Source: a virus
Lineage: Duplodnaviria > Heunggongvirae > Uroviricota > Caudoviricetes
Direction: 5' to 3' (one strand)
IMG/VR virus record: IMGVR_UViG_2671180849_000011
DNA: 13,205 nt
The notes below the pieces were generated by a model that saw only the letters and a program-made list of their open reading frames with translations, was not told the DNA's origin and ran no database searches. Positions 1-13,205 of the stretch are shown piece by piece (the stretch's first letter is position 1; each line of letters begins with the position of its first letter). The position numbers and the translations under genes are program-made.

Positions 1-88
1 CCCCCTGGGCACCGGACCCGCCTCAAAGGTCGGATCATCACAATTGGCGGGGCGATTTTATAGTCGCTTTAAGGTTTATAGACCGGAG

Positions 89-118
89 TTGACTTACCTT
101 CCGGCAACCTGCTAACAT
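89..118 (+). promoter_or_regulatory. candidate sigma70 promoter (TTGACT - 18 bp - TAACAT)
   Basis: -35 TTGACT at 89-94, 18-bp spacer, -10 TAACAT at 113-118; a 10-bp inverted repeat CCTGCTAACA (108-117) / TGTTAGCAGG (142-151) overlaps the -10 and could be an operator. Confidence 0.4.
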
Positions 119-124
119 TAGTCT

Positions 125-215
125 CGCGAGAGGTTGATTTTTGTTAGCAGGTTTTGCCCCGCATCAAAAGGATACCGGAGAAGAGCCCCTTTGTTAACAC
201 TTAGGGGCTTTTTTC
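125..215 (+). ncRNA. candidate small RNA of about 90 nt (promoter-to-terminator unit with no ORF)
   Basis: Predicted start about 125 after the -10; no ATG/GTG-initiated ORF before the terminator; 5' end GCGAGAGGTTGATTT (126-140) is antisense to leader elements at 8510-8527 and 9052-9069 of - strand mRNAs. Confidence 0.3.
184..215 (+). terminator. rho-independent terminator
   Basis: Stem AGCCCCT (184-190) / AGGGGCT (203-209), 12-nt loop, then T-run 209-214; sits just beyond the stop (266-268) of the convergent 708-aa gene. Confidence 0.6.
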
Positions 216-265
216 TTGCCTGGAGTTTATCCGGTCAGGCTAACTTATTGATTTAGATCACAATA

Positions 266-2392
266 TTAGAAAAGCTGGTTAGATTCCTGTGTGGCTTTCC
301 AATCCAACTGATCGCTGACTTCCTTCTGGATCACCCTGGCAATTCCACCCTCATCGATGGTTATCTCCCATTTGCCGGAAATCTCACCTTGTGGAACTAC
401 ATTAACCTGAGCAGGTTGATAGCCACCATTCTGAATAGCCGTACCAGTGCTAGGAGTAGGACGTGACGGGCTAATTGTTGGATATGGATTAAAGGAAGCT
501 CCTTTGCTGATGTAGCTATGGTTATAGGCCCCTGGCTTGGTCATAGCATCCTGCTCATCACTGAGAAGGCCTTTAGATTTAGCCCACTCCCCGAACTGAT
601 CAGCCTTGCTTTGCATCCATCCTCTGAACTTCTCACCTACCGTCTTAGCGCCAAGTGCGCCAGCGACACCAACACCCACACCTGCGGCACTGCCAGCGGC
701 TAATGCTGTTGTTGGGCTTCCAGCGACTGCCCCGCCAGCACCCTTAACGAGATTGCCCAGACCTGGAATCTTGCCTATCAGAGAAATCAGTTGGGTGACA
801 AGTGAAACAAATCCGGTTAGAGGGGAAAGCAGTGTAGTAATAACTTTCAGACCAGCTAAGCCGACTACCAATTTTCCGATAAGCTCGCCAACCTCTGATC
901 CGGTCATGCCGAACTCTTTAGCCTTGACCTCGATATATCCCTTAGCAAAGCCTACCCAATACATGATCTCCCGCATGGCAGCTCCGACTGCCTCACCAAA
1001 CTGTTTTGCCGCGCTCCCGCTGCCGTCCATATCAGTGGTGAGGTCTTCGAAGATGGAGATCAGAGATTCAGATAAGCTAATAACGCCATCTGCAGGATCC
1101 ACAACACCCATAAATTGAATCGCCAGCTCGTTAAAGCTGTTTTTCATGCGCTGCATTGCTACTTCTGGCTGTTTCATGGATTCAGCAAAAGCTTTAGTTT
1201 CTTTTGCAGCACCCCATATTTTCACCAAAGAAGGAAGTAGCTTGTCCAGGGTGATTTTGCCATCTTTAAGGGCTTTATCGAATTCCTGGGCATTCTTGAT
1301 GATTCCGGCATCAATAGCGGCCTGTTGGAAGTCCTGTTGTGAGCCTGCAAAGGCTTCTGACAGTTGGCCCCGCAGCTCTTCAGCCATAACTTTTCCCTTT
1401 GAAGCCATTTGTTGGACCGCAACAAGCGCCCTGTTCTGTTGCTCACCAGTAGCACCCACTGAGCGGCCTTTAATAGCCATAGCCTCAAAGAGAGCCTGCT
1501 TATCAGATTCCTTCATGGTGGGGGTAGCTGCAGCAAAGCGCATGTAGCCCCCTTGCATCTCCCGCTCATCCATCCCATAGGTGTAGGCTGTGTTCTTGAT
1601 AAAAGCCATCTGCTGATCAGTCTTGGCTTTATCATCCTTGTTCTGTGCCATCAAACCGAAGTAGGCACTGTTGCGATCTGCAAGGCTACCCATAGCACCA
1701 CTAACAGCACGCTGAACACCCCAGCCAGCGGCAGTAAGGCCAATGGCTATCTTGCCTAGTGTGGAGTTGATTTTGCCCAGGTTGTCATGCACCTTGCTGG
1801 CACCTGATGCCAGTTTATCCAGTCTGCTCTGAAATTTTCCGGCCTCTACTGTTGCCATCTTCATTTCAGATCTGAGCCGGGCCATTTTCTGATTATAGGT
1901 CTGCAGGTTAATAGCCCCTTTAGCATAATCAGCATTAACTCTCTGGATTCTGGATTGGAACTGAGCAACCAGGGAGCCATCAAACATGCTGCTGATTCGT
2001 GCACTGTTGGCCCCTACACGGGCCTTTCTGTGCTGAACATCTCCAACACTACGATCTAACAGTTTTTGTTGTCTGGCGGCCTCTCTGGCTTGCTGCTGAT
2101 AGAACTTGCGCATAGAGGAGAGCTCCGGATTATTGCCCCCGGTCAGACGGCTAACAGCCTGAGCACGTTGTTTCTTCTGTGCTCTGGCGATCTGCTCTTC
2201 CACCTTAGCGCGTGTTCTTTGTGTTCTGAGCACAGCCTGATTAGATTTAAAATCAGCTTTAGCTATATCGTCGGTAGCTTTCTTCCAGGATTTTTTATAA
2301 TCCTCAAGCCGTTTAACTTCTTTTCGCCAGCTGGATTTATCAGAATCCCAGTAAATAACGTTTGTTAGTCTGGCGATTTCCTTCATTGCCAT
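266..2392 (-). CDS. tail tape-measure-like protein (708 aa)
   Basis: Long ORF; N-terminal Q/R/A/K-rich predicted coiled coil; central segment (ALVAVQQMASKGKVMAEELRGQLSEAFAGS...) that I read as tape-measure-like; Gly/Ala/Val-rich hydrophobic stretch typical of tape measure proteins; RBS GGCGAGGTG before ATG at 2392; translationally coupled to the upstream gene. Confidence 0.55.
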   Translation of the reverse strand: MAMKEIARLTNVIYWDSDKSSWRKEVKRLEDYKKSWKKATDDIAKADFKSNQAVLRTQRTRAKVEEQIARAQKKQRAQAVSRLTGGNNPELSSMRKFYQQQAREAARQQKLLDRSVGDVQHRKARVGANSARISSMFDGSLVAQFQSRIQRVNADYAKGAINLQTYNQKMARLRSEMKMATVEAGKFQSRLDKLASGASKVHDNLGKINSTLGKIAIGLTAAGWGVQRAVSGAMGSLADRNSAYFGLMAQNKDDKAKTDQQMAFIKNTAYTYGMDEREMQGGYMRFAAATPTMKESDKQALFEAMAIKGRSVGATGEQQNRALVAVQQMASKGKVMAEELRGQLSEAFAGSQQDFQQAAIDAGIIKNAQEFDKALKDGKITLDKLLPSLVKIWGAAKETKAFAESMKQPEVAMQRMKNSFNELAIQFMGVVDPADGVISLSESLISIFEDLTTDMDGSGSAAKQFGEAVGAAMREIMYWVGFAKGYIEVKAKEFGMTGSEVGELIGKLVVGLAGLKVITTLLSPLTGFVSLVTQLISLIGKIPGLGNLVKGAGGAVAGSPTTALAAGSAAGVGVGVAGALGAKTVGEKFRGWMQSKADQFGEWAKSKGLLSDEQDAMTKPGAYNHSYISKGASFNPYPTISPSRPTPSTGTAIQNGGYQPAQVNVVPQGEISGKWEITIDEGGIARVIQKEVSDQLDWKATQESNQLF

Positions 2393-2395
2393 CTC

Positions 2396-2581
2396 TTACA
2401 CCTCGCCCTGTCTTAAAGATTTTGATAATGAAATAGCTCTTTTCAGGGCCTCTTTATCAATATTATATTTCTCCGCAAGCTCTTCGATTGAGAGGTCACC
2501 AGAGGAAGAAGCCCCGCCCTTAATGACGGGAGCATTGTTATCACTTTTTAATTTTTGATAAATCTTTTCGTAGGTATTCAT
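2396..2581 (-). CDS. hypothetical small protein (61 aa) with helix-turn-helix-like segment
   Basis: ATG at 2581 one nt after stop of the upstream gene (TGA-T-ATG); its stop TAA 2396-2398 lies 3 nt before the tape-measure ATG; segment LSIEELAEKYNIDKEALKRAI looks HTH-like. Confidence 0.45.
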   Translation of the reverse strand: MNTYEKIYQKLKSDNNAPVIKGGASSSGDLSIEELAEKYNIDKEALKRAISLSKSLRQGEV

Positions 2582-2582
2582 A

Positions 2583-2966
2583 TCATTTGCCTTTGCGTCT
2601 TAGTGGACACTTATCGCCAATAGTCCACACAAAAATATAATGGCGCTTGCTTTCAGCTTTAGGATTTAATAATTCTTTATGCAAATATCCGGCTGACAGC
2701 ATTTGATCGACCAGGTTTTTCACTCTTTGCCCTTCCTCAAACGTTTGTGTTTTGAAATAGAGATTTGGAAAGTTTTGGCCTGTATATTTTCCATCTTCAT
2801 ATAAGCGGGTGCATACCCAGCGACATAAATCATCATCGTTAAAATCACTAACGTGTGGTTTATCCTCACTGCTAAATAACGCCTGTTTAAAACGGGAGTA
2901 TTTAAACTCCCCATCTTCCAGGAAATCACCCTCATCGAATTCAACTATCATTTCTTCAATATTCAT
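2583..2966 (-). CDS. hypothetical acidic protein (127 aa from second ATG; 129 aa if ATG 2972)
   Basis: ORF in track; SD AAGGA is 7 nt before ATG at 2966; D/E-rich N-terminal half; occupies the position where tail assembly chaperones usually sit but no slippery heptamer seen. Confidence 0.5.
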   Translation of the reverse strand: MNIEEMIVEFDEGDFLEDGEFKYSRFKQALFSSEDKPHVSDFNDDDLCRWVCTRLYEDGKYTGQNFPNLYFKTQTFEEGQRVKNLVDQMLSAGYLHKELLNPKAESKRHYIFVWTIGDKCPLRRKGK

Positions 2967-3010
2967 AGGCATATCCTTTTAGATAAACATGAAAAGTAAG
3001 ATAAATAAAG

Positions 3011-3033
3011 GCACCCCCATTTTTTGAGGGTGC
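3011..3033 (-). terminator. intrinsic terminator-like hairpin (bidirectional context)
   Basis: Stem GCACCC (3011-3016) / GGGTGC (3028-3033) with T-rich loop; U-rich tail on the - strand (CTTTATTTAT, complement of 3001-3010) directly after the stop of the 147-aa gene at 3041. Confidence 0.4.
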
Positions 3034-3040
3034 TTATTAA

Positions 3041-3484
3041 TCATTCAAGATTTACCAGTTTGAGAGGCTTCACCGCCTGCAGCATGGCCTGCATCATTCC
3101 TACGCTTATTTCGAAGAGGTCTGCCATGTTTTGAAGGCTGGCACCTTCTGCCTCGATCATTGATTTGGAGAGCGCCGCGATCACGAATCCATCTTTGGCG
3201 TTATCCCACATGCTGATAAGAGGATCCTCACCGTGCTGGCGCATAAGGTCCTGAATCATCCACAGGCGCATTGCCATAACCACCAAATCGACATAAAAAA
3301 CATCACCATTGGCGGACTTGCATTCAGCAAAAGCGTGGTGTCTGTGTTTTAAGAAGTGCTCTTTGTCACGGGTAAATGCCAGGGTGTTGGTAAACTTGCC
3401 ATCTAAAAGATCCTGGCGAACTTTTGAATCTTCAGCGTCGATAGCTTTGATAACCTGGGATAATAATTTAGCGATTTGAGACAT
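3041..3484 (-). CDS. hypothetical protein (147 aa; track ORF extends to 3514)
   Basis: SD AAGGA 7 nt before internal ATG at 3484 (MSQIAKLL...); predicted helical protein with no recognisable motif. Confidence 0.5.
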   Translation of the reverse strand: MSQIAKLLSQVIKAIDAEDSKVRQDLLDGKFTNTLAFTRDKEHFLKHRHHAFAECKSANGDVFYVDLVVMAMRLWMIQDLMRQHGEDPLISMWDNAKDGFVIAALSKSMIEAEGASLQNMADLFEISVGMMQAMLQAVKPLKLVNLE

Positions 3485-3572
3485 TTGGAATTCCTTAAAA
3501 TTTATATGAGCCATCCGGCATATTTACCGGACGGCAGAATCAATAACTTGCGGCATATGTGAAGGCTATAAG

Positions 3573-4058
3573 CTATTTGCGCTGCATTGCTTTCCGGACT
3601 TTATTGCTGTGGCGGCGGTAGATGAATATAAATTCGCGATAAGCACGACTACCGGGCTTAGGCAAACGTTGATTAAGCTCCTTACGTGGCAGGAGGTCGC
3701 TCAACAAGCCCCAGACATGAAAGCAGGTTACTTTTAATTCTTTTGCTATCTCTTCAATATTCATCCCGCAATTCCACATTAAAAGAGATTTGCGGCGGCG
3801 ATCTTCGAAGACATTTCTATCTCTATCTATTTCGTTATAGACACTGAGGGGAACTCGACACCGTGGATTCCAGGATTCTTCATATAGTTTTTGGACTTTC
3901 TCAAGTTTAACGCCTGTATATTCCGCCACGAATTCAGGGGTAAAGCCCTCGACTAATAAGTGTTTGGCCTGTCGTGTTGGTTGATCATCACTGGGGAGAT
4001 ATTTCTGCAGTGCTACCAGTTTTTCAAATTGGGAATCAGAAAGATCAGATTTGAACAT
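3573..4058 (-). CDS. hypothetical DNA-binding protein (161 aa) with two HTH-like segments
   Basis: ATG 4058 preceded by GGAG at 8-nt spacing; segments FTPEFVAEYTGVKLEKVQKL and GMNIEEIAKELKVTCFHVWGLL resemble HTH motifs; basic C-terminus. Confidence 0.5.
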   Translation of the reverse strand: MFKSDLSDSQFEKLVALQKYLPSDDQPTRQAKHLLVEGFTPEFVAEYTGVKLEKVQKLYEESWNPRCRVPLSVYNEIDRDRNVFEDRRRKSLLMWNCGMNIEEIAKELKVTCFHVWGLLSDLLPRKELNQRLPKPGSRAYREFIFIYRRHSNKVRKAMQRK

Positions 4059-4146
4059 GATTAATTCTCCGAACGTTTAAAAGATCAGGGCAATCAATCT
4101 AGTTCTAGTAATTCTATGTTTAGTTTATTTAGTTTATTTGGGGGTG

Positions 4147-4293
4147 TTAATAAGGGATGTCAGAATCATTTTCTTCATCTGCTGGATCTTCAGCTAACCA
4201 ACCACAATATTCTTCCCAATATGAAAAATGTTGTGATAGTTCATCTTCAAAATATTTTTCCTTTTCCAGGTAATAATCAAAATCGCCATACAT
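4147..4293 (-). CDS. small highly acidic aromatic-rich protein (48 aa), not in ORF track
   Basis: ATG 4293 with SD AAGGAAG at 6-nt spacing, stop TAA 4147-4149; translation MYGDFDYYLEKEKYFEDELSQHFSYWEEYCGWLAEDPADEENDSDIPY has 16 D/E versus 2 K and no R; fills the gap between two called genes on the same strand. Confidence 0.35.
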   Translation of the reverse strand: MYGDFDYYLEKEKYFEDELSQHFSYWEEYCGWLAEDPADEENDSDIPY

Positions 4294-4334
4294 TTTAAAC
4301 TTCCTTAAACAAAAAAATAAGATTATCAGTGTTT

Positions 4335-5231
4335 TTATTTAAACTCTAAAATGCCTTTTTTATTTTTTCTAACATTTCTCCACAATATTTCGGGATAATC
4401 TCCGCAGGTTTTATCTAACAATATTTCGAATCCCATCCCAATAAGCTTATTTGCAAAAATAAAAACAGGTCTGGTTAAATGCCAGTATTCTTCCGGTTTC
4501 CAGATTTCACCCTCTATTTTCCCTTTATGTTGGCTTACCTCTTCTGCGGTGTAAAAATCCTCCTGAATCTTTGACAAAAGGATCGGGCGACGTTTGTTTA
4601 AATCTTTGTATTTGCTTTCCCACAGTGATCGCATTATGCCTTTAGCCTCACTCTCACCCAGGACAATCCAGCCCCCATCGGTTACATCTTTCACAGGACG
4701 GCCCCGGCGTGGCTTGTCACTAACAGCGTTAATTTGAGGCGCTTTAGTGTCTTGGGTAGGCAATTGCACCACCTTAGCCTTTTTAGCTTGCTGTGTGGCT
4801 TGTTTTGGGGCTTCTTGCGGGTGTTTCTCTTCACTACCTGCATTGCTCATAGGTTGTATTCCTTGAGCGTCACACATTTTGCAGATTTGAGAAGGAGTAA
4901 TTAACAGTTTGTAATGATTAGATTTGCCTTTACTTTTAATTACTGAAATAAGCCCGGCATTTTCCAGAGTTTTGATAGATTCAATGATTTTTCTATCACT
5001 CACACCACATATTTTTGCTAAGGTCTGCTCTGAGATAAATATTTCTTGCCCGTTTAAATGAAAACCTGCCATTTTTCCATAGATTGTTACCTCTATCAGG
5101 TCTAAATTAAATCGCTCTTTTGTTTTTCCAGTCTTTTTATTAGCAATTGTTGTTGCTACTGGTTTATCAAAAGTATACTGAATGAGGCGTTCGAAATGGG
5201 GATTAAAAACCTCCCCGTAATTACTTGCCAT
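4335..5231 (-). CDS. winged-helix DNA-binding protein (298 aa), replication-initiator-like or antirepressor-like
   Basis: ATG at 5231 preceded by GGGGGA; N-terminal wHTH-like segment ISEQTLAKICGVSDRKIIESIKTLENAGLISV; central P/Q/K/A-rich linker with KPRRGRPVK (AT-hook-like); architecture recalls lambda O-type initiators (from memory, unverified). Confidence 0.5.
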   Translation of the reverse strand: MASNYGEVFNPHFERLIQYTFDKPVATTIANKKTGKTKERFNLDLIEVTIYGKMAGFHLNGQEIFISEQTLAKICGVSDRKIIESIKTLENAGLISVIKSKGKSNHYKLLITPSQICKMCDAQGIQPMSNAGSEEKHPQEAPKQATQQAKKAKVVQLPTQDTKAPQINAVSDKPRRGRPVKDVTDGGWIVLGESEAKGIMRSLWESKYKDLNKRRPILLSKIQEDFYTAEEVSQHKGKIEGEIWKPEEYWHLTRPVFIFANKLIGMGFEILLDKTCGDYPEILWRNVRKNKKGILEFK

Positions 5232-5244
5232 AGTTCCCCCACAG

Positions 5245-5460
5245 TTATTTATTAATGTTGTTGGTGTATTTAGCCAGCTCACGCTCAAGGCGGAGACGAT
5301 TCAGTTCTAAAATTGCCGCTTCAATGTGTGGATATTCTCCTTTGTGTTTACGAATAAATGCATAAACGGAAGTTTTTCGAAAGTTACCTTTAAGCACGTT
5401 CTCGACGATTTCGTCAGTAGTCCAGTTTACCAGCTGGCTTATCGGTCCGGTTTTAGCCAT
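5245..5460 (-). CDS. hypothetical small protein (71 aa)
   Basis: ATG 5460 preceded by SD AGGAGA at 7-nt spacing; stop 13 nt before the next start; basic, possibly DNA-binding. Confidence 0.5.
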   Translation of the reverse strand: MAKTGPISQLVNWTTDEIVENVLKGNFRKTSVYAFIRKHKGEYPHIEAAILELNRLRLERELAKYTNNINK

Positions 5461-5592
5461 GATTCAATCTCCTGTTAGCTCACTAACCTGTGCGATATAT
5501 GGTTAAAAAGAAACGGGAACTTAAGACAAGCCCCCGCATTTTTGTTTAAGGAAATTCACTATGATGAGAATTACCCTATGATTTATATTTTA

Positions 5593-5742
5593 TCAGCTAT
5601 TTGCGAGATTGTCAACAATCTTTTTGTATTTATCTATCATTTTTTCTTCAAGGTTGTCGATTGCAGCTACTCCGGCTATGTAGGCAACACCGCACCACAG
5701 TACAGCCAGGTTGATGATCGCTATAGCGTCGCTCAGTTCCAC
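5593..5742 (-). CDS. small single-pass membrane protein (49 aa, GTG start), not in ORF track
   Basis: GTG 5742 preceded by GGAGG at 5-nt spacing; translation VELSDAIAIINLAVLWCGVAYIAGVAAIDNLEEKMIDKYKKIVDNLANS is one hydrophobic helix plus charged tail; stop TGA 5593-5595. Confidence 0.3.
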   Translation of the reverse strand: MELSDAIAIINLAVLWCGVAYIAGVAAIDNLEEKMIDKYKKIVDNLANS

Positions 5743-5786
5743 GTTGACCTCCGGATCTGTTTCTCCCACTATCTATAATCTTATCA

Positions 5787-5808
5787 TATTGACAACCAAT
5801 TGTCAATA
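5787..5808. promoter_or_regulatory. palindromic operator overlapping candidate leftward promoter
   Basis: Perfect inverted repeat TTGACAA (5789-5795) - CCAA - TTGTCAA (5800-5806), arms extend to 9 bp; on the - strand TTGACA, 17-bp spacer, TAAGAT; a third half-site TTGTCAAT at 5929-5936. Confidence 0.4.
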
Positions 5809-6424
5809 GGAATCATTATCATTTAGGCGAGCTATAGGTACAAACAAGTCCACAGCAAAGGGGTAAGCATTATTAATGGCCCCTACCGTGTCAAAACCAA
5901 AGTCACTTATAGCATTTATGCAATAAGATTGTCAATGGCCCACAAGGGAGGGAGAGCACTTTTTGCCTTAAGCGCTCTAAAATCGATTCTAACGCGATTT
6001 AGAGGTCAGGTAATGCAATTGCACTACTCACACAAGTTAATGCAGCCAGAAGGCCATTTAGGGGCCTTATTTTCGATTTCTGAGCGTCCTGTTACGTGTG
6101 TGCATACACGGGCGCGCGGAATCCCTCGCTTAAACGGTCCGGATTGGAAACAGAAGTCTCTTATCCGGACTCCACATTATATAGCTACGTGCTATCGCAC
6201 TACGCTACCCACACACAGGCCGACGTAGTCGGTTTAGCTGTATAGCTAAAGTCACAGAGTGACCCACACACAGATTGCCTAAAGAGTCGCTAATGCTCTT
6301 TAGGCTTTCATTTGTGGGTTAAGCTTTTCCCTTAGAAAACCTTCCCCACTCTCTGATCCCTCCCCATTCCCCTTGGGGGGTTAGGGGGGGATCTGTTGTG
6401 TGATCTATTAATTTATCTATTAGA

Positions 6425-6645
6425 GTGAGAAATTTTCAGGGGTACTAGTGAGAAATCTTCGGTAGTAGTGGTGAGAAATTCTCAGGGGTGTGGGTAGGTA
6501 TGGTGGTTAAGTAGTGAGAAATCTTCAGTAGTTAGAGGCTGTGTATCATGGGGGCAATGACTGCAAAACGGGAAAGCATGACTGTATAAACACACAGGTG
6601 TGAAAATTCTTCACAGGTTAGCGACACCGGAAAAATCTTCAGTAG
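6425..6645. repeat. iteron-like direct repeats, six copies of about 18 bp (consensus GTGAGAAATCTTCAG(G/T)(G/A)G)
   Basis: Copies at 6425-6442, 6448-6465, 6471-6488 (exact 23-bp phasing), 6514-6531, 6598-6617 (degenerate), 6630-6645; preceded by G-run GGGGGGTTAGGGGGGG 6375-6390. Confidence 0.6.
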
Positions 6646-6655
6646 TGTCTATCTG

Positions 6656-6753
6656 CATATGTGGGAAATACACCCTTATTGACCTATTTTGACTAGCAAA
6701 CCTCTCTCTTCTCTCTTTGCTCTGATTTCCTCTCATGTGTGGGAAATATGCAT
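6656..6753. repeat. second repeat family CAT(A/G)TGTGGGAAATA (two copies) flanking a CT-rich tract
   Basis: catatgtgggaaata at 6656-6670 and catgtgtgggaaata at 6734-6748; pyrimidine-rich tract 6701-6734; a related copy aaaatgtgggatata near 7047-7061. Confidence 0.45.
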
Positions 6754-7488
6754 ACCAACACCCGTTGATTTTATCAATAGCTATGTTGACCGGGCATCAT
6801 AAGTGTGGCCCCTGAGGCAGTCCATCCTTCCCTCACACAGGACAATGAATATATAAAGAACATGAAAGACTGTTCACACCAACACGCCGATAAATTGCCT
6901 GAAGAGGCTTACATGGGGTTATTGTTGTGTGGGTAATGGTGATCATGCTAACAGATTATGTTAATCAGATGTAAATTCCGATTTTGTGGTCTGCATGGAG
7001 CAAACTATACTGGTTAAATGATCAGGGGAATGACTACAAAACAATCAAAAATGTGGGATATAGCCATCTACACGTCTAATGTGCTGTGTGGGGTGTTAGT
7101 GCATGCTTACATGTAAGTCATTGATTTGAAGGGTTGGGAAAATTGCATTTAACATAATAGATCTTATCTACACTAATAAAGCGAACTACAAAATCTGATT
7201 TAAAAATCATGATCAGTGGGCACAGAATTTACGTACAGCCACCTGAATAAATAATGTGCACAACATACAGCAAAGCTTAAGAATTAACATAATAGCAACG
7301 TGGTCAGTAGTGGTGTGATATTTGAGAATTGTTAGAAGAAAAAAGGGAGGTGGGGGAGCGCCTGCCTGGCACCTCAGACGAGTTACCCATAAGCTCAAAT
7401 ACCGCTAATGGATATTTCTGACACCCACACCCAAGACCGCTTTCAGCACATAGCCATATAGCCACACAGGACCGCACAGGATGCAATT

Positions 7489-7698
7489 GTGATAACAAAA
7501 AATGGGGGTGTAATAGGGTAGGTCACCTTTCATCAAAATCACTTCTACGACGTTTCCAGAGTGATAACAAGAAAACAGGCCTCTAAGATTATCTGTGCCT
7601 CGTTTTTAGCTTTTTGTGTGGTTACCAGGTGAAGAGGAAATGTTAAAAACTGTTCATTTTATGCACAAACTAGTCAGGGTGATACCACAAAATGAGGT
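7489..7698. repeat. third repeat family GTGATA(A/C)CA-A-rich-GG, three copies
   Basis: gtgataacaaaaaatggggg 7489-7508, gtgataacaagaaaacagg 7561-7579, gtgataccacaaaatgagg 7679-7697; DnaA-box-like TTATGCACA at 7659-7667. Confidence 0.45.
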
Positions 7699-7887
7699 GT
7701 AAGAAATCCAGCTGCAGATAATCTTGCAGCCAGATTTTGCAGTTTTTTAGGGTATGTTAAATTTGACAAAAATAGAGAAAAGGCTTATTAAGCTAACTTA
7801 TTGATTTTATTAGTATTACGAAAAAGGGTTACACCCTCTCTCTTACTCTGTCAACCGGGCGGTTGTGGCATAAAACGGATTAAATCA

Positions 7888-7946
7888 ATAAATAGGCATT
7901 AAATAGGGGATAAATAGGGGTTAATTGAGGGATAAATAAAAAGGGG
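7888..7946. repeat. five tandem 11-bp phased repeats (A/T)TAAAT(A/T)GGGG
   Basis: Units start at 7888, 7899, 7910, 7921, 7932 (exact 11-bp period); last unit merges into the terminator stem. Confidence 0.55.
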
Positions 7947-7959
7947 CCGTGATGGCCCC
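7931..7959 (-). terminator. rho-independent terminator of the membrane-protein gene
   Basis: Stem GGGGCC (7943-7948) / GGCCCC (7954-7959), loop GTGAT; - strand tail TTTTTATTTATC (complement of 7931-7942); 8 nt past stop codon 7968-7970. Confidence 0.6.
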
Positions 7960-7967
7960 CTGGTAGG

Positions 7968-8498
7968 TCAGAACAGTTTTTTGCTTTTTCTCCAACTAAC
8001 GCCGCGTTTGCCTATGCTCAGCCAGCCGCCAGCGAATCGGGTACCTGCGGTAACACTAGCTCCCCTGGTACCTACATGTGCATAAATACCTGCTCCACTG
8101 CTACCACCGCTTCTACGGCTTTTTCCGCCATCGATATCAAGGAGAACACAGATCGCATTCCACCAAAAGCCGATCACCCATATTGCAAATGCTAAGCCTA
8201 AAACGCCCCAGGTGACCGCCCACCCTTCCAGACTAGTGGGGAAGTAGAAAGCATTGAGAACAGCATTTATAGGGCGGATCAGGAGAAAATCTATAAAACC
8301 AGTATCCACATGAAACGGTCCATTGCCGAACTTGCTACTGCCAATAAATAAGGTAGCAGGGTAAAAGAAGATAGCCATTGCCCAAGGGCCAATAAGCAGG
8401 ATAGTAGCCCCGAACTGTGCGGCCTCCTTAAAGAACATTTTTACTATTGCTTTAAAAAGCTTTTTGTTTTCTGATTCTTTATCTTTCTGAAATAACAT
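7968..8498 (-). CDS. polytopic membrane protein (176 aa) with Gly/Ser/Arg-rich C-terminal tail
   Basis: ATG 8498 preceded by AAGGGG; about four hydrophobic segments; own terminator; position and type fit a superinfection-exclusion or abortive-infection moron (inference). Confidence 0.6.
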   Translation of the reverse strand: MLFQKDKESENKKLFKAIVKMFFKEAAQFGATILLIGPWAMAIFFYPATLFIGSSKFGNGPFHVDTGFIDFLLIRPINAVLNAFYFPTSLEGWAVTWGVLGLAFAIWVIGFWWNAICVLLDIDGGKSRRSGGSSGAGIYAHVGTRGASVTAGTRFAGGWLSIGKRGVSWRKSKKLF

Positions 8499-9336: not shown

Positions 9337-9365
9337 TTGACAATGTGAGTAAATACTGATATAAT
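9337..9365 (+). promoter_or_regulatory. perfect-consensus sigma70 promoter (TTGACA - 17 bp - TATAAT) with AT-rich upstream region
   Basis: TTGACA 9337-9342, exactly 17-bp spacer, TATAAT 9360-9365; AT-rich 9305-9335 (UP-element-like); faces the capsid genes. Confidence 0.65.
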
Positions 9366-9373: not shown

Positions 9374-9508
9374 TACCGTGAATCATTTAGCGAAGGTGGT
9401 TTACCGTATTTTCCTCCAAAGTAACGGCGACCAGGTAGCGGTGCCGCCTTATAAATAACACTACCCTGATCATCGTTGAGTGGTCGATTAATTCTCCTAT
9501 TGGGCTAG

Positions 9509-9517
9509 TTATCCACA
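9509..9517 (+). promoter_or_regulatory. consensus DnaA box TTATCCACA inside the capsid-operon leader
   Basis: Exact 9-mer; also the 5' arm of an inverted repeat CCACACAG (9513-9520) / CTGTGTGG (9539-9546). Confidence 0.3.
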
Positions 9518-9845
9518 CAGTTTTCTTTTGCGGGTTTTCTGTGTGGGTAGCTATCCCGAAAGGTATTTCCCCGCTGATGTGACCGCAGCCTGAACTGATT
9601 CGGGGGAGTGCCTTTCGTGATAGTGCTCTCTAGCAACCGTAACCATGCAGTGAACTATCAGCCAACTGTTGTTGGTTTTCCCCATATGGAATAGCCCCCG
9701 CTTGGACGGTGCGGGGCTATCTCCCTCTCCTTATATCAATCCCCCTTTAGATTTCCGGCATAACTTTTCGGCCCGAGCCTGTCGTGGTTTGAGAGGTTAT
9801 ACCTGAACCCTTTGAGGGGAGTTAATTTAAATCGCAGGTGATCAA

Positions 9846-10181
9846 ATGAGAGATATGACTATCCGCACACGCGGACACATCATTTCATACGCCGCAGATG
9901 AGCAATTTAGTATTCGCGACGTTGAAGTTAAAAACAAAGTTAAGACTGAGATTCCGGCTGGCACTGTTGTTGTGGTGACTGAGGCTGGCGAGGTTGAGAC
10001 CTTCGTTAAAGCAACGCACACCGGTAAAACTCCGCTGCTGGTTGTAGAACGTGCTGAAGTTGGTGATTCCTTTATCGTTGTTGCGAACAAAGGTTGCTAC
10101 ATCAATCCGGCCTATGTGGACAAAGACGGCTTAGCCGCTGTTGTTGCTGCCAGCAATGGCGATTTGCGTGTTGCACAATAA
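9846..10181 (+). CDS. head decoration-like protein (111 aa), assignment by position
   Basis: ATG 9846 preceded by AGGTGA at 5-nt spacing; strongly biased high-expression-type codons; immediately upstream of the capsid gene, as gpD is in lambda; no sequence similarity to lambda gpD recognised. Confidence 0.5.
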   Translation: MRDMTIRTRGHIISYAADEQFSIRDVEVKNKVKTEIPAGTVVVVTEAGEVETFVKATHTGKTPLLVVERAEVGDSFIVVANKGCYINPAYVDKDGLAAVVAASNGDLRVAQ

Positions 10182-10192
10182 GGAGGTTGAAA

Positions 10193-11239
10193 ATGGCTAA
10201 GAAAGAATTCGAAGTTCGCGATCTGTGTGGTCTGATTAAAGATATCCCGCCGGATAACATGATTATTTCTGCAATGGATATCTTCAACACTACTGCTCTG
10301 TGCAATACCTTTAAATTTGAATATGACAAAGTTCGCCAGGTGAAACAAACCGCTTTCGGTCAGTATCCGCGCTACGGTGAACAGATGGCTACCATTACCG
10401 CAGATGAGCGTGAAACGGGCACGGGTGATATGGCATTCACTGCCGCATCAAGTGCTATTTATCCTTCTGACTGGCAGGGTATCCGCGTTCCTGGCAAAGA
10501 TTCCGAAGAGAATCTAGAGTCTGTAACCGCTCGTCGTGTTATTCAGCTGGGCGAAGGCTTACGCCAGACCCACGAAGAAGCACGCCAGCTTGCTCTCTTT
10601 GAGAACAAAATTATCCTCACCAAGGGTAAAGAACTGAATGTGTGCGAACTGCTGGGCGCACAGCAAACCACTTCAGAAGTGGATCTAACTCAAGATATCC
10701 TTAAACAGCTGCAGGACCTGGTTGCACTGAGCAAGGTTAAACAGCGTGGTGTCGTTCGTGCCCTGCGTGGTTTCACCCTGTTCTGCCGTGCTGAACTGTT
10801 TACCGCTATTCAGACTGATGAACTGCTCCGTAAAGTGCTGTTGTTCGGCAATCAGAACATTACCGACAAAGGTCTGATGTTCCCTGAGGATATTCTGCCG
10901 GGCTTCCCGACCTTCCGCATTCCGGGCTTAGCCCTGCGTGTGGTGCAAATGGATAGTCTGCCAGAGAATACTGCTTATCTGGTCCCACAGTTCCAGCCGC
11001 ATGCGTTAGGCGATATGGTGGGCGTTTATACTCAATTTTTCGGCCCTTGCGCTCGCAACCTGAAGCTGGCAAACGGCGCTGCACGTGAAGCTTTCATGTA
11101 TATGGAAGAGTCCAGAGGCAAACGCGAAATCTTCGTTGAATCCTCTTATGCTTTCATGAACATGATGCCTGAAGTTGTGGTTAAAGTGAGTGTTAAAAAC
11201 ACCGCCGCCGCTGCTCTGGCAAAAGCCAAGGCTAAATAA
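10193..11239 (+). CDS. major capsid protein, lambda gpE-like family (348 aa)
   Basis: ATG 10193 preceded by AAGGAGG at 6-nt spacing (track ORF starts at an upstream TTG); strong codon bias; collinear matches to lambda gpE as I recall it (FKF near N-terminus, LPENT versus LPDNT, C-terminal V-S-V); size fits. Confidence 0.6.
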   Translation: MAKKEFEVRDLCGLIKDIPPDNMIISAMDIFNTTALCNTFKFEYDKVRQVKQTAFGQYPRYGEQMATITADERETGTGDMAFTAASSAIYPSDWQGIRVPGKDSEENLESVTARRVIQLGEGLRQTHEEARQLALFENKIILTKGKELNVCELLGAQQTTSEVDLTQDILKQLQDLVALSKVKQRGVVRALRGFTLFCRAELFTAIQTDELLRKVLLFGNQNITDKGLMFPEDILPGFPTFRIPGLALRVVQMDSLPENTAYLVPQFQPHALGDMVGVYTQFFGPCARNLKLANGAAREAFMYMEESRGKREIFVESSYAFMNMMPEVVVKVSVKNTAAAALAKAKAK

Positions 11240-11243
11240 AAGC

Positions 11244-11296
11244 AAAGGGAAGAGGTGGGAGATTGTGGGTAGGTCTTTCCCTCTTCCCTTTTTTGT
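11244..11296 (+). terminator. strong rho-independent terminator after the capsid gene
   Basis: 12-bp stem AAAGGGAAGAGG (11244-11255) / CCTCTTCCCTTT (11280-11291) then T-run to 11294; begins 5 nt after stop codon. Confidence 0.65.
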
Positions 11297-11328
11297 TATC
11301 CCCGTCTTAAGTTTTTGAGGTGTCTTTT

Positions 11329-11580
11329 ATGAAAATTGTTTTATACGGCGACCGTGACGACGTGCCTTTTGATATTATCCATATCGATGACGAGGATCTG
11401 CCGGAATTCCTGCGTATCTCCACATTTGCCGCCTGCTATGACGTTAGCCGCCAGGCTATGCATAAATACCGTGAATATAATAAATGCACCTGGGCCGAGA
11501 CTTTCGAACATTTTATTGCACGCAAACAAGCCCAGGACCGCAAAAAAGCCCTGAATGCGCATAATCGTTTTGCAAAATAA
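11329..11580 (+). CDS. hypothetical small protein (83 aa)
   Basis: ATG 11329 preceded by GAGGTG at 6-nt spacing (track ORF starts at GTG 11320); acidic N-terminus, basic C-terminus. Confidence 0.5.
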   Translation: MKIVLYGDRDDVPFDIIHIDDEDLPEFLRISTFAACYDVSRQAMHKYREYNKCTWAETFEHFIARKQAQDRKKALNAHNRFAK

Positions 11581-11654
11581 CGATAGATAGCCCTGTCTTT
11601 TTATCAGAATTCACACAGGGCCACCAAAAGATTCAATTTGGAGGCATGTTTAAT

Positions 11655-12458
11655 ATGGCTAGTGATGCTCTGACAGCTGCAAAACAAGCTGAGTCGAGAT
11701 CTCCTGCATTCACTGTTATGTGTGGGGGATATTCACAAAACAAAAATATAATGGATGGCTTCAACTATACCGATAATGTGGCTATCTTCTTTGACTCTAT
11801 CTCTGATGTCAGCTATTCGTTCCCTGTTGAGAAATCGAGCTATGCGGTCGAGGATGGCACCACCATGTCAGACCATGCCGTCATTAAAGATAAATCTGTC
11901 AGCTTTACGGGTATTATTACCTCTTCCCCTCACATTATCCGGAAAGAGAACTACATCGACCGGAACACTGATCCAGATAATCCCCGTGAATCTATGCGCC
12001 CTGCTGCCGCTGTTCAGGCACTTATGGAAATGAGAGACAAGCGCCAGCTAGTTAGCCTGGTAAGTGAAGATGCCGGACTCCTTGAGAACTTCATCATGAC
12101 GAAATGTGAAGTTAAGCGTAGCTCTTCCTCTGGCGACTGCATCACTATTGATTGCACTTTTGAAGAATTCCGCACCTTCAAGGTGAAGATGGTCGAAAAT
12201 GCCGGAGTTTTCACTAACAGTAAGAAGGTGAATAAAACACAGCAAAAGGGTGCTGTTAACAGTGCTAAAGAGGGTAGTAACGCTGGCAATGCTGCTACGA
12301 AATCTACCAGAGCTAAGCATCGCGGGGAATATGCACAGGGAGAGGCAGCGGGAAAGATTGCCGCAGGTGATAAGTCTGTCGTGTCGAATGAGTTCCACGA
12401 AACGATGATTGATAAGGCCAACATGTTGCTTGATGACATCACGGAGATCAACAAATGA
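11655..12458 (+). CDS. hypothetical protein (267 aa; 270 aa if ATG 11646)
   Basis: GGAGG 11640-11644 is 1 nt from ATG 11646 but 10 nt from ATG 11655; Ser/Thr-rich; stop overlaps next start (ATGA). Confidence 0.55.
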   Translation: MASDALTAAKQAESRSPAFTVMCGGYSQNKNIMDGFNYTDNVAIFFDSISDVSYSFPVEKSSYAVEDGTTMSDHAVIKDKSVSFTGIITSSPHIIRKENYIDRNTDPDNPRESMRPAAAVQALMEMRDKRQLVSLVSEDAGLLENFIMTKCEVKRSSSSGDCITIDCTFEEFRTFKVKMVENAGVFTNSKKVNKTQQKGAVNSAKEGSNAGNAATKSTRAKHRGEYAQGEAAGKIAAGDKSVVSNEFHETMIDKANMLLDDITEINK

Positions 12459-12913
12459 GTCCGAAAGTCCGTTGCACCATAGACAAGCGCATGATGGATA
12501 AGCTGCATAAAGAGCTCTCACAGATGGAAGGTGTAGCGGTTGGCTGGGATGACGGGAAACACTATAGCGGCCTGAATTACGCCACACTGGCAGCAATTCA
12601 TTCTGAGGGGTGGGGTGATCTGCCTAAGCGCTCCTTTATGGAATCTGCCCACGCAGCAATGCTCTATGAGAGCCTGAGACACACAAAAGCCCTGATTAAT
12701 GCAATCGTAAAGGGTGGGAGCTCTGAGGCCGTCAGGAAGCGAATAGGCAAGCGATACGCCGACATTCTGGAGACTATCCTGATTAGTGGGCAATTCAGCA
12801 ACAACAAGGTTTCCCCACAATGGGCAAGCTATAAAGGCTTCAATGATGCCATGCGCCACTATGATGATTTGATCGGTGCAATCAAATACTGGTCAAATGT
12901 GGGGAGAGGTTGA
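12455..12913 (+). CDS. hypothetical protein (152 aa), translationally coupled
   Basis: ATG 12455 overlaps upstream stop (ATGA); GGAG 8 nt upstream; no recognisable motif. Confidence 0.55.
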   Translation: MSPKVRCTIDKRMMDKLHKELSQMEGVAVGWDDGKHYSGLNYATLAAIHSEGWGDLPKRSFMESAHAAMLYESLRHTKALINAIVKGGSSEAVRKRIGKRYADILETILISGQFSNNKVSPQWASYKGFNDAMRHYDDLIGAIKYWSNVGRG

Positions 12914-12929: not shown

Positions 12930-13005
12930 TCTTTTGAGGCCGTAGTGAGGCTAATCACGGTCCGGCTTAAAAAAGACAATAGGATGTCTTTTGAGGCCGT
13001 AGTGA
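12930..13005. repeat. two copies of a 19-bp direct repeat TCTTTTGAGGCCGTAGTGA
   Basis: Exact copies at 12930-12948 and 12987-13005 (57-bp spacing), similarity extends upstream (AATAG..); 17 nt after stop of the 152-aa gene. Confidence 0.5.
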
Positions 13006-13205
13006 TACACCACAAATCAGCCCCTTTCCACTTCTTTTCTCGCGATTGGTCCCTTGTGAGAATCCTTTATCAGGTATGCATTGTCCCGTGCATGAGCGGT
13101 CGATAGAGCCAGCCTCTTTCCCGGACTGGTTAGGATTTAGTGCGCTGAGAGAGCGCCGCTATCACTGTTAGCCTGTTTATCGTTGCCTGGTTTGTGCATC
13201 ACTGC

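Follow-up and report, generated by a model that had tools for sequence, protein, structure and literature searches.

P4, of 11.6 kb, is a phage satellite able to persist as a plasmid, and its replication operon is controlled by premature termination in the leader, a mode of control also known from antisense-controlled plasmids. The Acinetobacter satellite Phanie is reportedly a phi29-like element, unrelated to the plasmid described below. Phage-inducible chromosomal islands that form capsids (cf-PICIs) are described as encoding a full head and packaging set with small terminase, portal, protease and connectors (bioRxiv 10.1101/2022.09.08.507074), and according to a 2025 review only one satellite, that of an inovirus, has been shown to be a plasmid, others probably having gone unrecognised (PMC12282955). 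We analysed a stretch of 13,205 nucleotides (nt) deposited as a tailed-phage sequence (IMG/VR record IMGVR_UViG_2671180849_000011; the whole stretch is called the window), with emphasis on a cassette of seven small genes at 2396-5460, next to a gene for a tape-measure protein (TMP). The cassette is probably the conserved replication-and-control operon of a ~13-kb Escherichia coli plasmid with a partial set of Vequintavirus-like virion genes.

Like P4, this element is small and plasmid-capable, with its own replication module, an incomplete virion gene set and a terminator-like hairpin in the operon leader. Unlike P4, it has capsid, decoration-like, tape-measure, Dit-like and tail-completion-like genes of its own, and its virion genes are related to those of a large virulent myovirus (Vequintavirus) and not to P2; the P4 alpha primase-helicase, sid, psu, delta, epsilon and integrase had no PHROG or Pfam match among its open reading frames (ORFs). 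With the cf-PICIs and PICIs of Enterobacteriaceae it shares a size of ~12-15 kb and a major capsid protein (MCP) of its own, and its relatives in Klebsiella are likewise integrated islands with an integrase. Unlike cf-PICIs, it is without terminase, portal, protease and connectors, and it has TMP, Dit-like and tail-completion-like genes, tail genes being absent from the set described for cf-PICIs. Integrase, alpA and pri-rep gave no match in the element, which has plasmid replication instead.

The replication module itself resembles iteron theta replicons (lambda O/ori-lambda, and RepA/RepE/pi of pSC101, F and R6K) in its winged-helix initiator, in its cluster of direct repeats (five ~21-bp copies, three of them successive at 23-bp spacing), in the joint change of initiator and iterons among relatives, and in matches to lambda O-like and DnaD-like PHROGs. 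Unlike the initiators of named iteron replicons, Rep lies here outside Rep_3 and the plasmid Rep families, 1.2 kb from the iterons, and has an AT-hook linker, an extra C-terminal domain and a separate acidic partner whose tip is like that of SSB, the protein which binds single-stranded DNA.

A circular plasmid and its conserved cassette

The window aligns end to end with circular E. coli plasmids of 13.2-13.7 kb at 90-98% identity, or 90-95% for those of 13.3-13.7 kb that the cassette matched, and it is for this reason a complete circular plasmid of ~13.2 kb, and no piece of a prophage as an earlier note on this DNA had implied. Features that bear on the cassette are, from right to left:

6423-6646, no strand assigned: iterons, presumed origin for Rep; five direct repeats of ~21 nt (GTGAGAAATCTTCAGTAGT), repeat family D1
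5587-5615, minus strand: promoter-like site of the cassette operon, TTGACA-17-TAAAAT with extended -10 TG, 11 of 12 consensus positions
5513-5537, minus strand: leader hairpin and T-run, candidate attenuator (terminator scan: 11 pairs, then TTCTTTTT)
5245-5460, minus strand: g71, basic protein of 71 amino acids (aa), first gene of the operon; pI 9.6, dN/dS ~0.35
4335-5231, minus strand: Rep, 298-aa winged-helix replication initiator with AT-hook-like linker and conserved C-terminal domain (Pfam and PHROG matches)
4147-4293, minus strand: g48, 48-aa hyper-acidic, aromatic-rich protein ending in DSDIPY, like the SSB C-terminal tip
3573-4058, minus strand: g161, 161-aa basic protein with two helix-turn-helix (HTH) units (sub-threshold), the most widely conserved cassette protein
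3041-3484, minus strand: g147, 147-aa orphan protein, mostly helical; dN/dS 0.10
3011-3033, minus strand: hairpin between g147 and g127 (terminator scan: 9 pairs, 6 of them G-C, T-rich tail)
2583-2966, minus strand: g127, 127-aa orphan protein; dN/dS 0.16, no family or PDB match
2396-2581, minus strand: g61, 61-aa protein with HTH-like C-terminus (sub-threshold YlxM/GntR HTH matches)
266-2392, minus strand: TMP, 708 aa, last gene of the strand block; Pfam TMP_3 (PF20155) above cut-off, PHROG 5255 at E=4.6e-191, 27% identity to Vequintavirus

The seven minus-strand ORFs of the cassette (71, 298, 48, 161, 147, 127 and 61 aa), as listed in the earlier note, are also present in the RefSeq annotation of related plasmids. 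Their pairwise ratios of nonsynonymous to synonymous substitution (dN/dS) are 0.10-0.42, compared with 0.10-0.19 for TMP and MCP, and all seven are real genes under purifying selection. Most of the properties that the note had read from the letters were recovered: g71 is basic, the 298-aa protein has a winged helix (Pfam HTH_36 above cut-off) and an RGRP-cored linker, g48 is hyper-acidic, and two HTH-like units were found in g161, with family matches below threshold. Two others stood in part, g127 being mildly acidic (pI 5.4) but not strongly so, and g61 having HTH matches that are sub-threshold only. As the note had it, no enzymatic family was matched by any cassette protein in Pfam, PHROGs, NCBIfam or PADLOC, and g71, g48, g147 and g127 had nothing above threshold in these four collections; PDB sequence and profile searches with g161, g147, g127, g61 and Rep returned nothing meaningful. 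Rep is the only one of the seven to fall into a replication family, and none falls into a tail-assembly family. The note's picture of an early-type module, with a replication initiator and DNA-binding regulators and with most proteins outside described families, agrees with these results.

The family to which the window belongs is rare and of uniform size. The cassette matched seven E. coli plasmids of 13.3-13.7 kb and one record of 39.6 kb, and matches of the window in complete E. coli genomes were plasmid-borne in 9/9 cases. Of the 5426 complete E. coli genomes, 7 have a member, and 5 of the 72,556 plasmids in PLSDB belong to the family, all of them typed as non-mobilizable. A metagenome scan added just two close members, on contigs of 13.9 kb. 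Protein clusters of g161, g127 and g147 comprise 190-370 member sequences on contigs of 13-14.9 kb, and element sizes across relatives are confined to 12.6-14.9 kb. GTDB representative genomes, queried with the TMP protein and a conserved 27-mer, yielded no member, and no published account came up in literature searches on the plasmid, on its protein accessions or on a Vequintavirus satellite. The window has no tRNA and no Rfam family at a meaningful score. In the 39.6-kb record (L004, NZ_CP043822.1) three copies of the element stand head to tail, one of them with broken genes; either a genuine multimer or concatemer or an artefact of long-read assembly could account for it.

The gene order g71, Rep, small acidic protein, g161, g147, g127, g61, TMP is shared, and the cassette keeps its position in all ~10 family members examined, including lineages at 35-57% protein identity; cassette homologues are retained in lineages at merely 27-57% identity. 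Thus in L013 (13.4 kb) g161 is 57% and TMP 84% identical to the window and the cassette order is kept, and in L011/L012 (14.7 kb; g161 47%, TMP 35%, MCP 50%) it is kept save for g127, which is missing from L012. Intergenic gaps from g71 through TMP are 13, 41, 88, 88, 74, 1 and 3 nt.

The cassette is AT-richer than its flanks, as the earlier note had claimed by eye, with a guanine-plus-cytosine (GC) fraction of 0.399 against 0.492 for the tape-measure gene, 0.475 for the capsid/tail block (9846-12913) and 0.460 for the remaining window. Only 9 of 265 circular windows of 3065 bp have a lower GC, each of them overlapping the cassette. Its genes are uneven in this respect (g48 0.32; g61, g127 and Rep 0.38-0.39; g161 0.43; g147 0.47), and position 5460 is no compositional boundary because the ORF-poor stretch 5461-7967 is AT-rich as well (0.416). 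The actual low-GC half is 2396-7967 (0.406, as against 0.475 elsewhere), and its left edge at the tape-measure gene is sharp. The dip recurs in L013 (0.395 vs 0.49) and L012 (0.417 vs 0.477), and its presence in such diverged lineages indicates an old property of the module rather than a mark left by recent acquisition.

Identity among close members (n=5) is mosaic at 400-1000, 4200-5400, 6000-6700 and 7900-8450, corresponding to the C-terminal part of TMP, to Rep and g48, to the iteron region, and to the membrane protein g176. The C-terminal third of TMP (400-1000) is hypervariable within a family otherwise 90-98% identical. In g176 (7968-8498, 176 aa) the N-terminal and middle parts are hypervariable and the Gly-rich C-terminus is conserved. 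g161, g147 and g127 are 86-98% identical inside the main lineage. Between L013 and the window the nucleotide identity is 80% in TMP and 91% in the 3' part of Rep, and the g161-g147-g127-g61 block is uniformly diverged; such block-wise divergence is seen in those modules of mobile elements that serve regulation or specificity.

The replicon and the control of its operon

Rep matches Pfam HTH_36 with 31.6 bits (cut-off 25) and a dozen PHROGs of replication initiator, lambda O-like and DnaD-like proteins (E=1.2e-9 to 4e-3); NCBIfam gave sub-threshold HTH matches only. Its linker reads PRRGRPVK, with the RGRP core of an AT-hook. Across the family the Rep N-domain is mosaic, falling from 99 to 29% identity and switching jointly with the iteron sequence, so that five Rep types were found, each with a distinct iteron at 22-23 bp spacing:

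Rep type of the window: GTGAGAAATCTTCAGTAGT
L002: CTGTGGGAAATTCCAACAGGT
L003: CGGAAATATTTACCGGGGT
L005 and L013, one shared Rep type: CCCCGGTAAATTTTACCGGGGT
L012: TGATCTAAATGAACACATTA

The iterons of the window start 23, 23, 43 and 114 bp apart, and their pattern has 7 matches where 1.3 are expected. The matching of initiator type to iteron sequence is a hallmark of iteron replicons, and that the cassette and iterons form such a replicon, with a winged-helix initiator, is well supported and is the best-supported part of our interpretation. Autonomous replication has indirect support in the family records, all of which are circular plasmids. By tblastn, Rep is present in just 4 of 72,556 plasmids, and DnaA boxes are not enriched. 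Some members have an extra ORF of 121-133 aa between g71 and Rep (L002 6451-6816; L019 3397-3798), a paralogue of the N-terminal winged-helix domain of Rep only (47% identity to Rep residues 11-130), which may have been left behind when specificity domains were exchanged, or may act as a competitor in trans.

The gene that follows Rep encodes g48, in which 16 of the 48 residues are D/E and 12 are aromatic. DDDIPF, the hexapeptide at the SSB C-terminus, is described as engaging many replication and repair proteins (PMC5872125). The g48 family is similarly acidic and usually has D-[SD]-x-I-P-Y at the extreme C-terminus. Although its positional equivalents are barely alignable (27% identity overall), they end in DDILPY (L013), DSAIPY (L020), DSCIPY (L005) or DEDY (L019). 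Unlike SSB, these proteins are only 48-62 aa long, lack an oligonucleotide-binding (OB) fold and end in Tyr, and two lineages end in DEDY or HEYHY. Where separate, the small acidic gene always lies directly 3' of Rep. L003 has no separate g48 gene, and its unrelated Rep, which is without the usual C-terminal domain, ends in ...DEYTNDSAIPY; this fusion of the tail to Rep is the main argument for g48 as a partner of Rep and against its being a free DNA mimic. In the Klebsiella islands, Rep ends in ...EYDEDPNF. We suggest from these endings that g48 docks on the C-domain of Rep and supplies an SSB-like recruiting tail.

The genes flanking Rep and g48 link the plasmid to integrated elements. Homologues of g71, for which family searches gave no match, stand 5' of Rep in all lineages, and its N-terminal 65 residues resemble the start of a 152-aa protein that precedes Rep in Klebsiella islands (E=1e-4). 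Sub-threshold matches of g161 are to Sigma70_r4, HTH_23 and KorA, and both of its units fit the generic HTH pattern G-x-t-x-e-e-I-A-x-x-L-g-l-s. In a word-indexed search g161 was confined to the plasmid family; an exhaustive profile search recovered 109 relatives. Full-length ones (150-210 aa) are on other 12.6-14.9 kb contigs and on chromosomes of Klebsiella, Citrobacter, Pantoea and Cedecea, and many long repeated-HTH proteins among the relatives match the second unit only. In Klebsiella the g161 relatives lie directly 3' of the Rep gene within capsid-gene-carrying, integrase-bounded islands (L007-L009, 8335-14748), arranged as follows:

First half: 152-aa protein with g71-like N-terminus; winged-helix Rep (DUF6945); g161-like protein; 126-aa protein
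After a gap: 109-aa decoration-like protein; Phage_cap_E capsid protein; 68-aa HTH protein; integrase

The 109-aa protein resembles the decoration-like g111 of the plasmid via a relative in L010, a 12.8-kb contig with the same core as the islands. This shared core indicates that g71-Rep-g161 and the decoration-capsid pair travel together in both plasmid and integrated form. Islands and L010 look like parts of a wider, apparently undescribed group of capsid-gene elements sharing the cassette core. The place of the cassette, called unexpected in the earlier note, is the same in ~10 plasmid family members, and the g71-Rep-g161 order recurs in these islands. Gene position and the HTH-like units suggest that g161 is the main DNA-binding transcriptional regulator, which may also control the virion genes; g71 is probably a DNA-binding regulator too.

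Homologues of g147 occur in the plasmid family only, with 40% identity in L013 and 24% in L012. A Foldseek search with its AlphaFold2 model gave no match below E=2.5, and a 21-residue match to AcrVIA2 in the PDB search (E=0.045) was dismissed as being at chance level. g127 is likewise confined to the plasmid family, with a homologue in L013 (47% identical) and none in L012. In the g61 homologues, of 61-117 aa, the N-terminal helix is conserved, the linker varies and the end is HTH-like. A peptide TPEGV-x-x-x-HL is found in variable linkers of g61 homologues (L004 18545-18781, L012 4695-5048) and also in the linker of the unrelated L003 Rep (10592-11503); its recurrence may reflect a short linear motif held in common or past recombination. 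The g61 ATG lies 1 nt past the end of g127, and the tape-measure ATG 3 nt past the g61 stop. This spacing points to translational coupling of g61 to g127 and to the tape-measure gene, and the link to the latter had been seen in the earlier note.

Signals for expression of the operon are conserved in arrangement. The TTGACAAT...TGATAAAAT promoter arrangement is kept 5' of the g71 homologue in every lineage, L012 and L013 included, and the site at 5587-5615 would act as the cassette promoter. The leader hairpin adjoins this promoter on one side and g71 on the other. L005 and L013 have a differing leader sequence at the equivalent place, again with a hairpin and T-run, and this retention despite sequence change suggests control by premature termination, with attenuation as the putative role of the hairpin. 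Within the main lineage the g147-g127 hairpin is conserved, and L002 and L005 differ in it by compensatory changes; L012 has a hairpin and T-run likewise 5' of its last small gene. Overlapping the promoter is a 49-aa ORF (5593-5742, minus strand) whose 3' end contains it and which has a promoter-like site of its own at 5806-5778. This ORF is conserved, with a hydrophobic segment and a dN/dS of 0.16, and is RefSeq-annotated in relatives; it may encode a small membrane peptide or be a toxin-like gene for maintenance.

A working scheme for the operon may be proposed from these elements. Transcription from the near-consensus promoter (5615-5587) would run leftward through the leader hairpin (5537-5513), a likely attenuation point setting operon output. 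The small, basic g71 would be produced first, probably as a DNA-binding regulator. Rep would bind its cognate iterons at 6423-6646 and open the origin, the N-terminal winged helix conferring iteron specificity and the linker serving as AT-hook. g48 would dock on Rep, its DSDIPY tip recruiting host replication proteins, a tail that in one lineage is part of Rep itself. g161, with its tandem HTH and its place beside Rep in plasmid and integrated relatives, would be the main transcriptional regulator, perhaps of the virion genes, and g147, g127 and g61 would be additional control or specificity factors. Lying beyond the second hairpin and translationally coupled to the tape-measure gene, g127 and g61 would be co-expressed with TMP.

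Virion genes, a possible satellite lifestyle and its rivals

Besides the tape-measure gene, the plasmid carries a plus-strand virion block (9846-12913):

Plus strand, 5' of the MCP gene: g111, 111 aa, decoration-like by position only; no family or phage match and no Vequintavirus identity detected
Plus strand: major capsid protein, phrog_29; 23-24% identity to Vequintavirus
Plus strand: Dit-like "tail tube initiator", PF21821; 50-52% identity to Vequintavirus
Plus strand: g152, 152 aa, tail-completion-like, phrog_222; 42% identity to Vequintavirus

An 86-aa HTH-like gene follows that of MCP. Searches of all ORFs against terminase, portal, protease, sheath and tube families gave no match. dN/dS is 0.10 for MCP and 0.12-0.19 for TMP, and the same five virion genes are retained in lineages that are 35-50% diverged. 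The element, at 13.2-13.7 kb, is about one tenth the size of the ~137-kb Vequintavirus genomes. In the cassette, in the non-coding half and in a conserved ~430-nt element described below, comparison with phages turned up no shared DNA of the pac- or cos-site kind or any other. A perfect sigma-70 promoter (TTGACA-17-TATAAT with TG; 9337-9365, plus strand) lies ~480 nt 5' of the decoration-like and capsid genes. The capsid-operon leader that extends to 9845 is 98-100% conserved at 9400-9600, and a 25-nt inverted repeat in it (9496-9563) contains TTATCCACA.

A partial virion set without packaging genes corresponds in gene content to a phage satellite or assembly parasite, here apparently linked to rV5-like phages, and points to a putative plasmid-resident satellite lifestyle. 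It is tempting to speculate, at rather less than even confidence, that the plasmid represents an undescribed satellite class, that is, an autonomous iteron plasmid of E. coli parasitic on virulent Vequintavirus (rV5-like) phages and with the cassette as its control centre. On this proposal g48 might be, equally tentatively, a detachable initiator subunit mimicking the SSB tip, and the orphan HTH proteins (g161, g61, perhaps also g71, g147 and g127) might sense the helper. We would put forward with similar reserve that the HTH proteins activate the capsid, tape-measure and tail-tip genes of the plasmid, and that the same Rep-g161 core drives the capsid-gene islands integrated in Klebsiella and in other Enterobacteriaceae. 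Such a satellite would have a new architecture, plasmid-borne and with its own capsid, tape-measure and tail-tip genes; it could explain the spread of some "non-mobilizable" small plasmids, and it could matter for phage resistance, virulent rV5-like phages being in use in phage-therapy cocktails. Two leads emerge: a replication initiator with a separate, in one lineage fused, SSB-tip-like acidic tail, and a family of tandem-HTH proteins as the marker of a broader range of elements with capsid genes in Enterobacteriaceae. What we would consider new here is the undescribed element type together with the SSB-tip lead, rather than evidence for any defence or anti-defence system.

Several observations weigh against this interpretation of operon and element. 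Rep has no match at E<=0.1 to Pfam Rep_3 (PF01051) or the named plasmid Rep families, and the iterons are removed from rep, inside an ORF-poor region of 2.2 kb. The promoter and terminator calls are consensus matches, and the hairpin at 3011-3033 is without T-run in L002 and L005. The tip of g48 has a terminal Tyr where SSB has Phe, and no IPY tip is present in L019 (DEDY) or in the 126-aa acidic protein of L012 (ending HEYHY). All HTH matches of g161 are under the family cut-offs, and its top PDB matches are designed helical-repeat proteins. AlphaFold2 models of g147 and g127, built on shallow alignments, were unusable, with a predicted local distance difference test (pLDDT) score of 52 and 44, respectively; with this failure, four of the seven proteins are without an evidence-based function. 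Finally, no helper phage was identified; the cassette had zero DNA matches among 50,697 phage records, and the family was not found in IMG/VR when queried with g161 and the conserved 27-mer.

Four other explanations were weighed. The earlier note had seen in the cassette a separate origin, and a recent foreign insertion into a phage morphogenesis region would account for a GC below that of the flanks and for the mosaic Rep part among members; this is very improbable, as the cassette is a core part with its GC dip at a constant place in every member and lineage, its borders have no repeats, integrase or transposase, the low-GC tract runs on through the origin region to ~7967, and what mosaicism there is affects only the N-domain of Rep, g48 and the iterons, as is usual when replicon specificities are exchanged. 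Another alternative is that the TMP-adjacent genes (g127 and g61, or g147 and g61) are tail-assembly chaperones and the left cassette half is ordinary tail morphogenesis. Small coupled genes directly 5' of TMP are also what gpG/gpGT chaperones present: gaps of 1 and 3 nt lead into the tape-measure gene, the hairpin sets g127-g61-TMP apart from the upstream genes, and Vequintavirinae have a 147-159-aa chaperone (phrog_3840) and an ORF of 38-82 aa at the equivalent place (157 and 82 aa before the Vequintavirus TMP), sizes similar to those of the g147 (147-157 aa) and g61 (61-82 aa) families; with its TMP just 27% identical to that of the phage, the plasmid might need its own chaperone. Unlike gpG/gpGT, however, the cassette genes have no sequence or profile similarity, frameshift signature or co-evolution with TMP. 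BLASTP found nothing, no chaperone PHROG matched at E<=1 (the phage protein itself: 1.7e-68), and profile-profile comparison by hhalign, with the g147, g127 and g61 families on one side and an alignment of Vequintavirinae chaperones from five genera and the partner on the other, gave probabilities <1%. No slippery heptamer is evident on direct reading, and a frameshift fusion is unlikely since, going 5' from its ATG, the frame of g61 meets a stop after just 6 codons. In L013 TMP is 84% identical as against 51% for g61, 47% for g127 and 40% for g147; g127 is dispensed with in L012, and g61 has its HTH-like end. A tail-chaperone identity of g147, g127 and g61 thus appears unsupported, and we regard this alternative as unlikely.

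The orphan proteins might instead be an anti-defence or host-takeover payload (DNA-mimic anti-restriction proteins, inhibitors of host or helper) that rides with the replicon. g48, small and hyper-acidic, has a typical DNA-mimic profile and g127 is mildly acidic; g48, g127 and g147 are without known family; the g161-g147-g127-g61 block is 38-57% identical in L013, far below the flanking TMP and Rep C-terminal part, which would fit an arms race; and an SSB-tip mimic could equally be a competitive inhibitor of SSB partners. Against this, the g48 tail fused to Rep in L003 and the acidic gene always right after Rep indicate a replication role, positive selection was not seen at pairwise dN/dS of 0.10-0.42, and g161 and g61 have a DNA-binding look. 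No anti-restriction match was found in PADLOC or Pfam, the PADLOC negative being weak evidence because its models cover defence and not anti-defence. A payload seems to us rather improbable. The chances are also slim that the element is merely a cryptic plasmid or decaying phage-plasmid remnant, a plain replicon with autoregulators, no helper link and structural genes as relics. That no helper phage has been identified, that the family is rare (7/5426 genomes, 5/72,556 plasmids) and typed non-mobilizable, and that it was not found in viral contig collections and has no DNA similarity to phages would suit this explanation. The structural genes, however, are intact and under strong purifying selection (MCP 0.10, TMP 0.12-0.19), five virion genes are retained at 35-50% divergence in an element of tightly confined size, and the integrated relatives keep the decoration-like and capsid pair with the same Rep-g161 module. 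Were it just a cryptic plasmid, a false call of an insertion in a prophage would still be removed, and a replicon type missed by typing schemes annotated.

Conserved elements of the non-coding half

The stretch 5770-7967 is ORF-poor over 2.2 kb, of which just ~230 bp are iterons; it has no Rfam match and no similarity to phage records. Positions 6800-7800 are 90-98% conserved in the main lineage and not alignable to L012.

A non-coding element of ~430 nt (12993-13205 joined to 1-219, plus strand) has the end of the tail operon, g152, on one side and that of the tape-measure gene on the other, and it closes with an intrinsic terminator at 179-219, the cut of the window falling inside it. Its identity is 96-98% in the main lineage and 77.7% to L012, where flanking proteins are 35-50% identical, and no other DNA is as well conserved between these two lineages. 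Neither an Rfam family nor a phage match was found for it. RNAalifold predicts 121 pairs, 14 with compensatory double changes, compared with 0-2 in slid controls and 3.5±1.6 in shuffles (0/500 reaching 14); the z-score of the minimum free energy is -3.9. This covariation evidence is limited in that there are only two effective lineages. The element is a candidate for a structured RNA, or for a cis-acting site, whether for packaging or for something else.

The octamer TGTGTGGG occurs 8 times in the window where 0.37 occurrences are expected:

6208 and 6263, minus strand: TGTGTGGG
6736, 6926, 7085, 8983, 9540 and 11719, plus strand: TGTGTGGG

Copies on the minus strand stand left of the iterons, and those on the plus strand stand right of them. 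L012 has this arrangement too around its unrelated iterons, and L013 also has the motif. The inverted repeat 9496-9563 of the capsid-operon leader contains one copy. The octamer is likely to be the binding site of a conserved factor, possibly one of the HTH proteins of the cassette.

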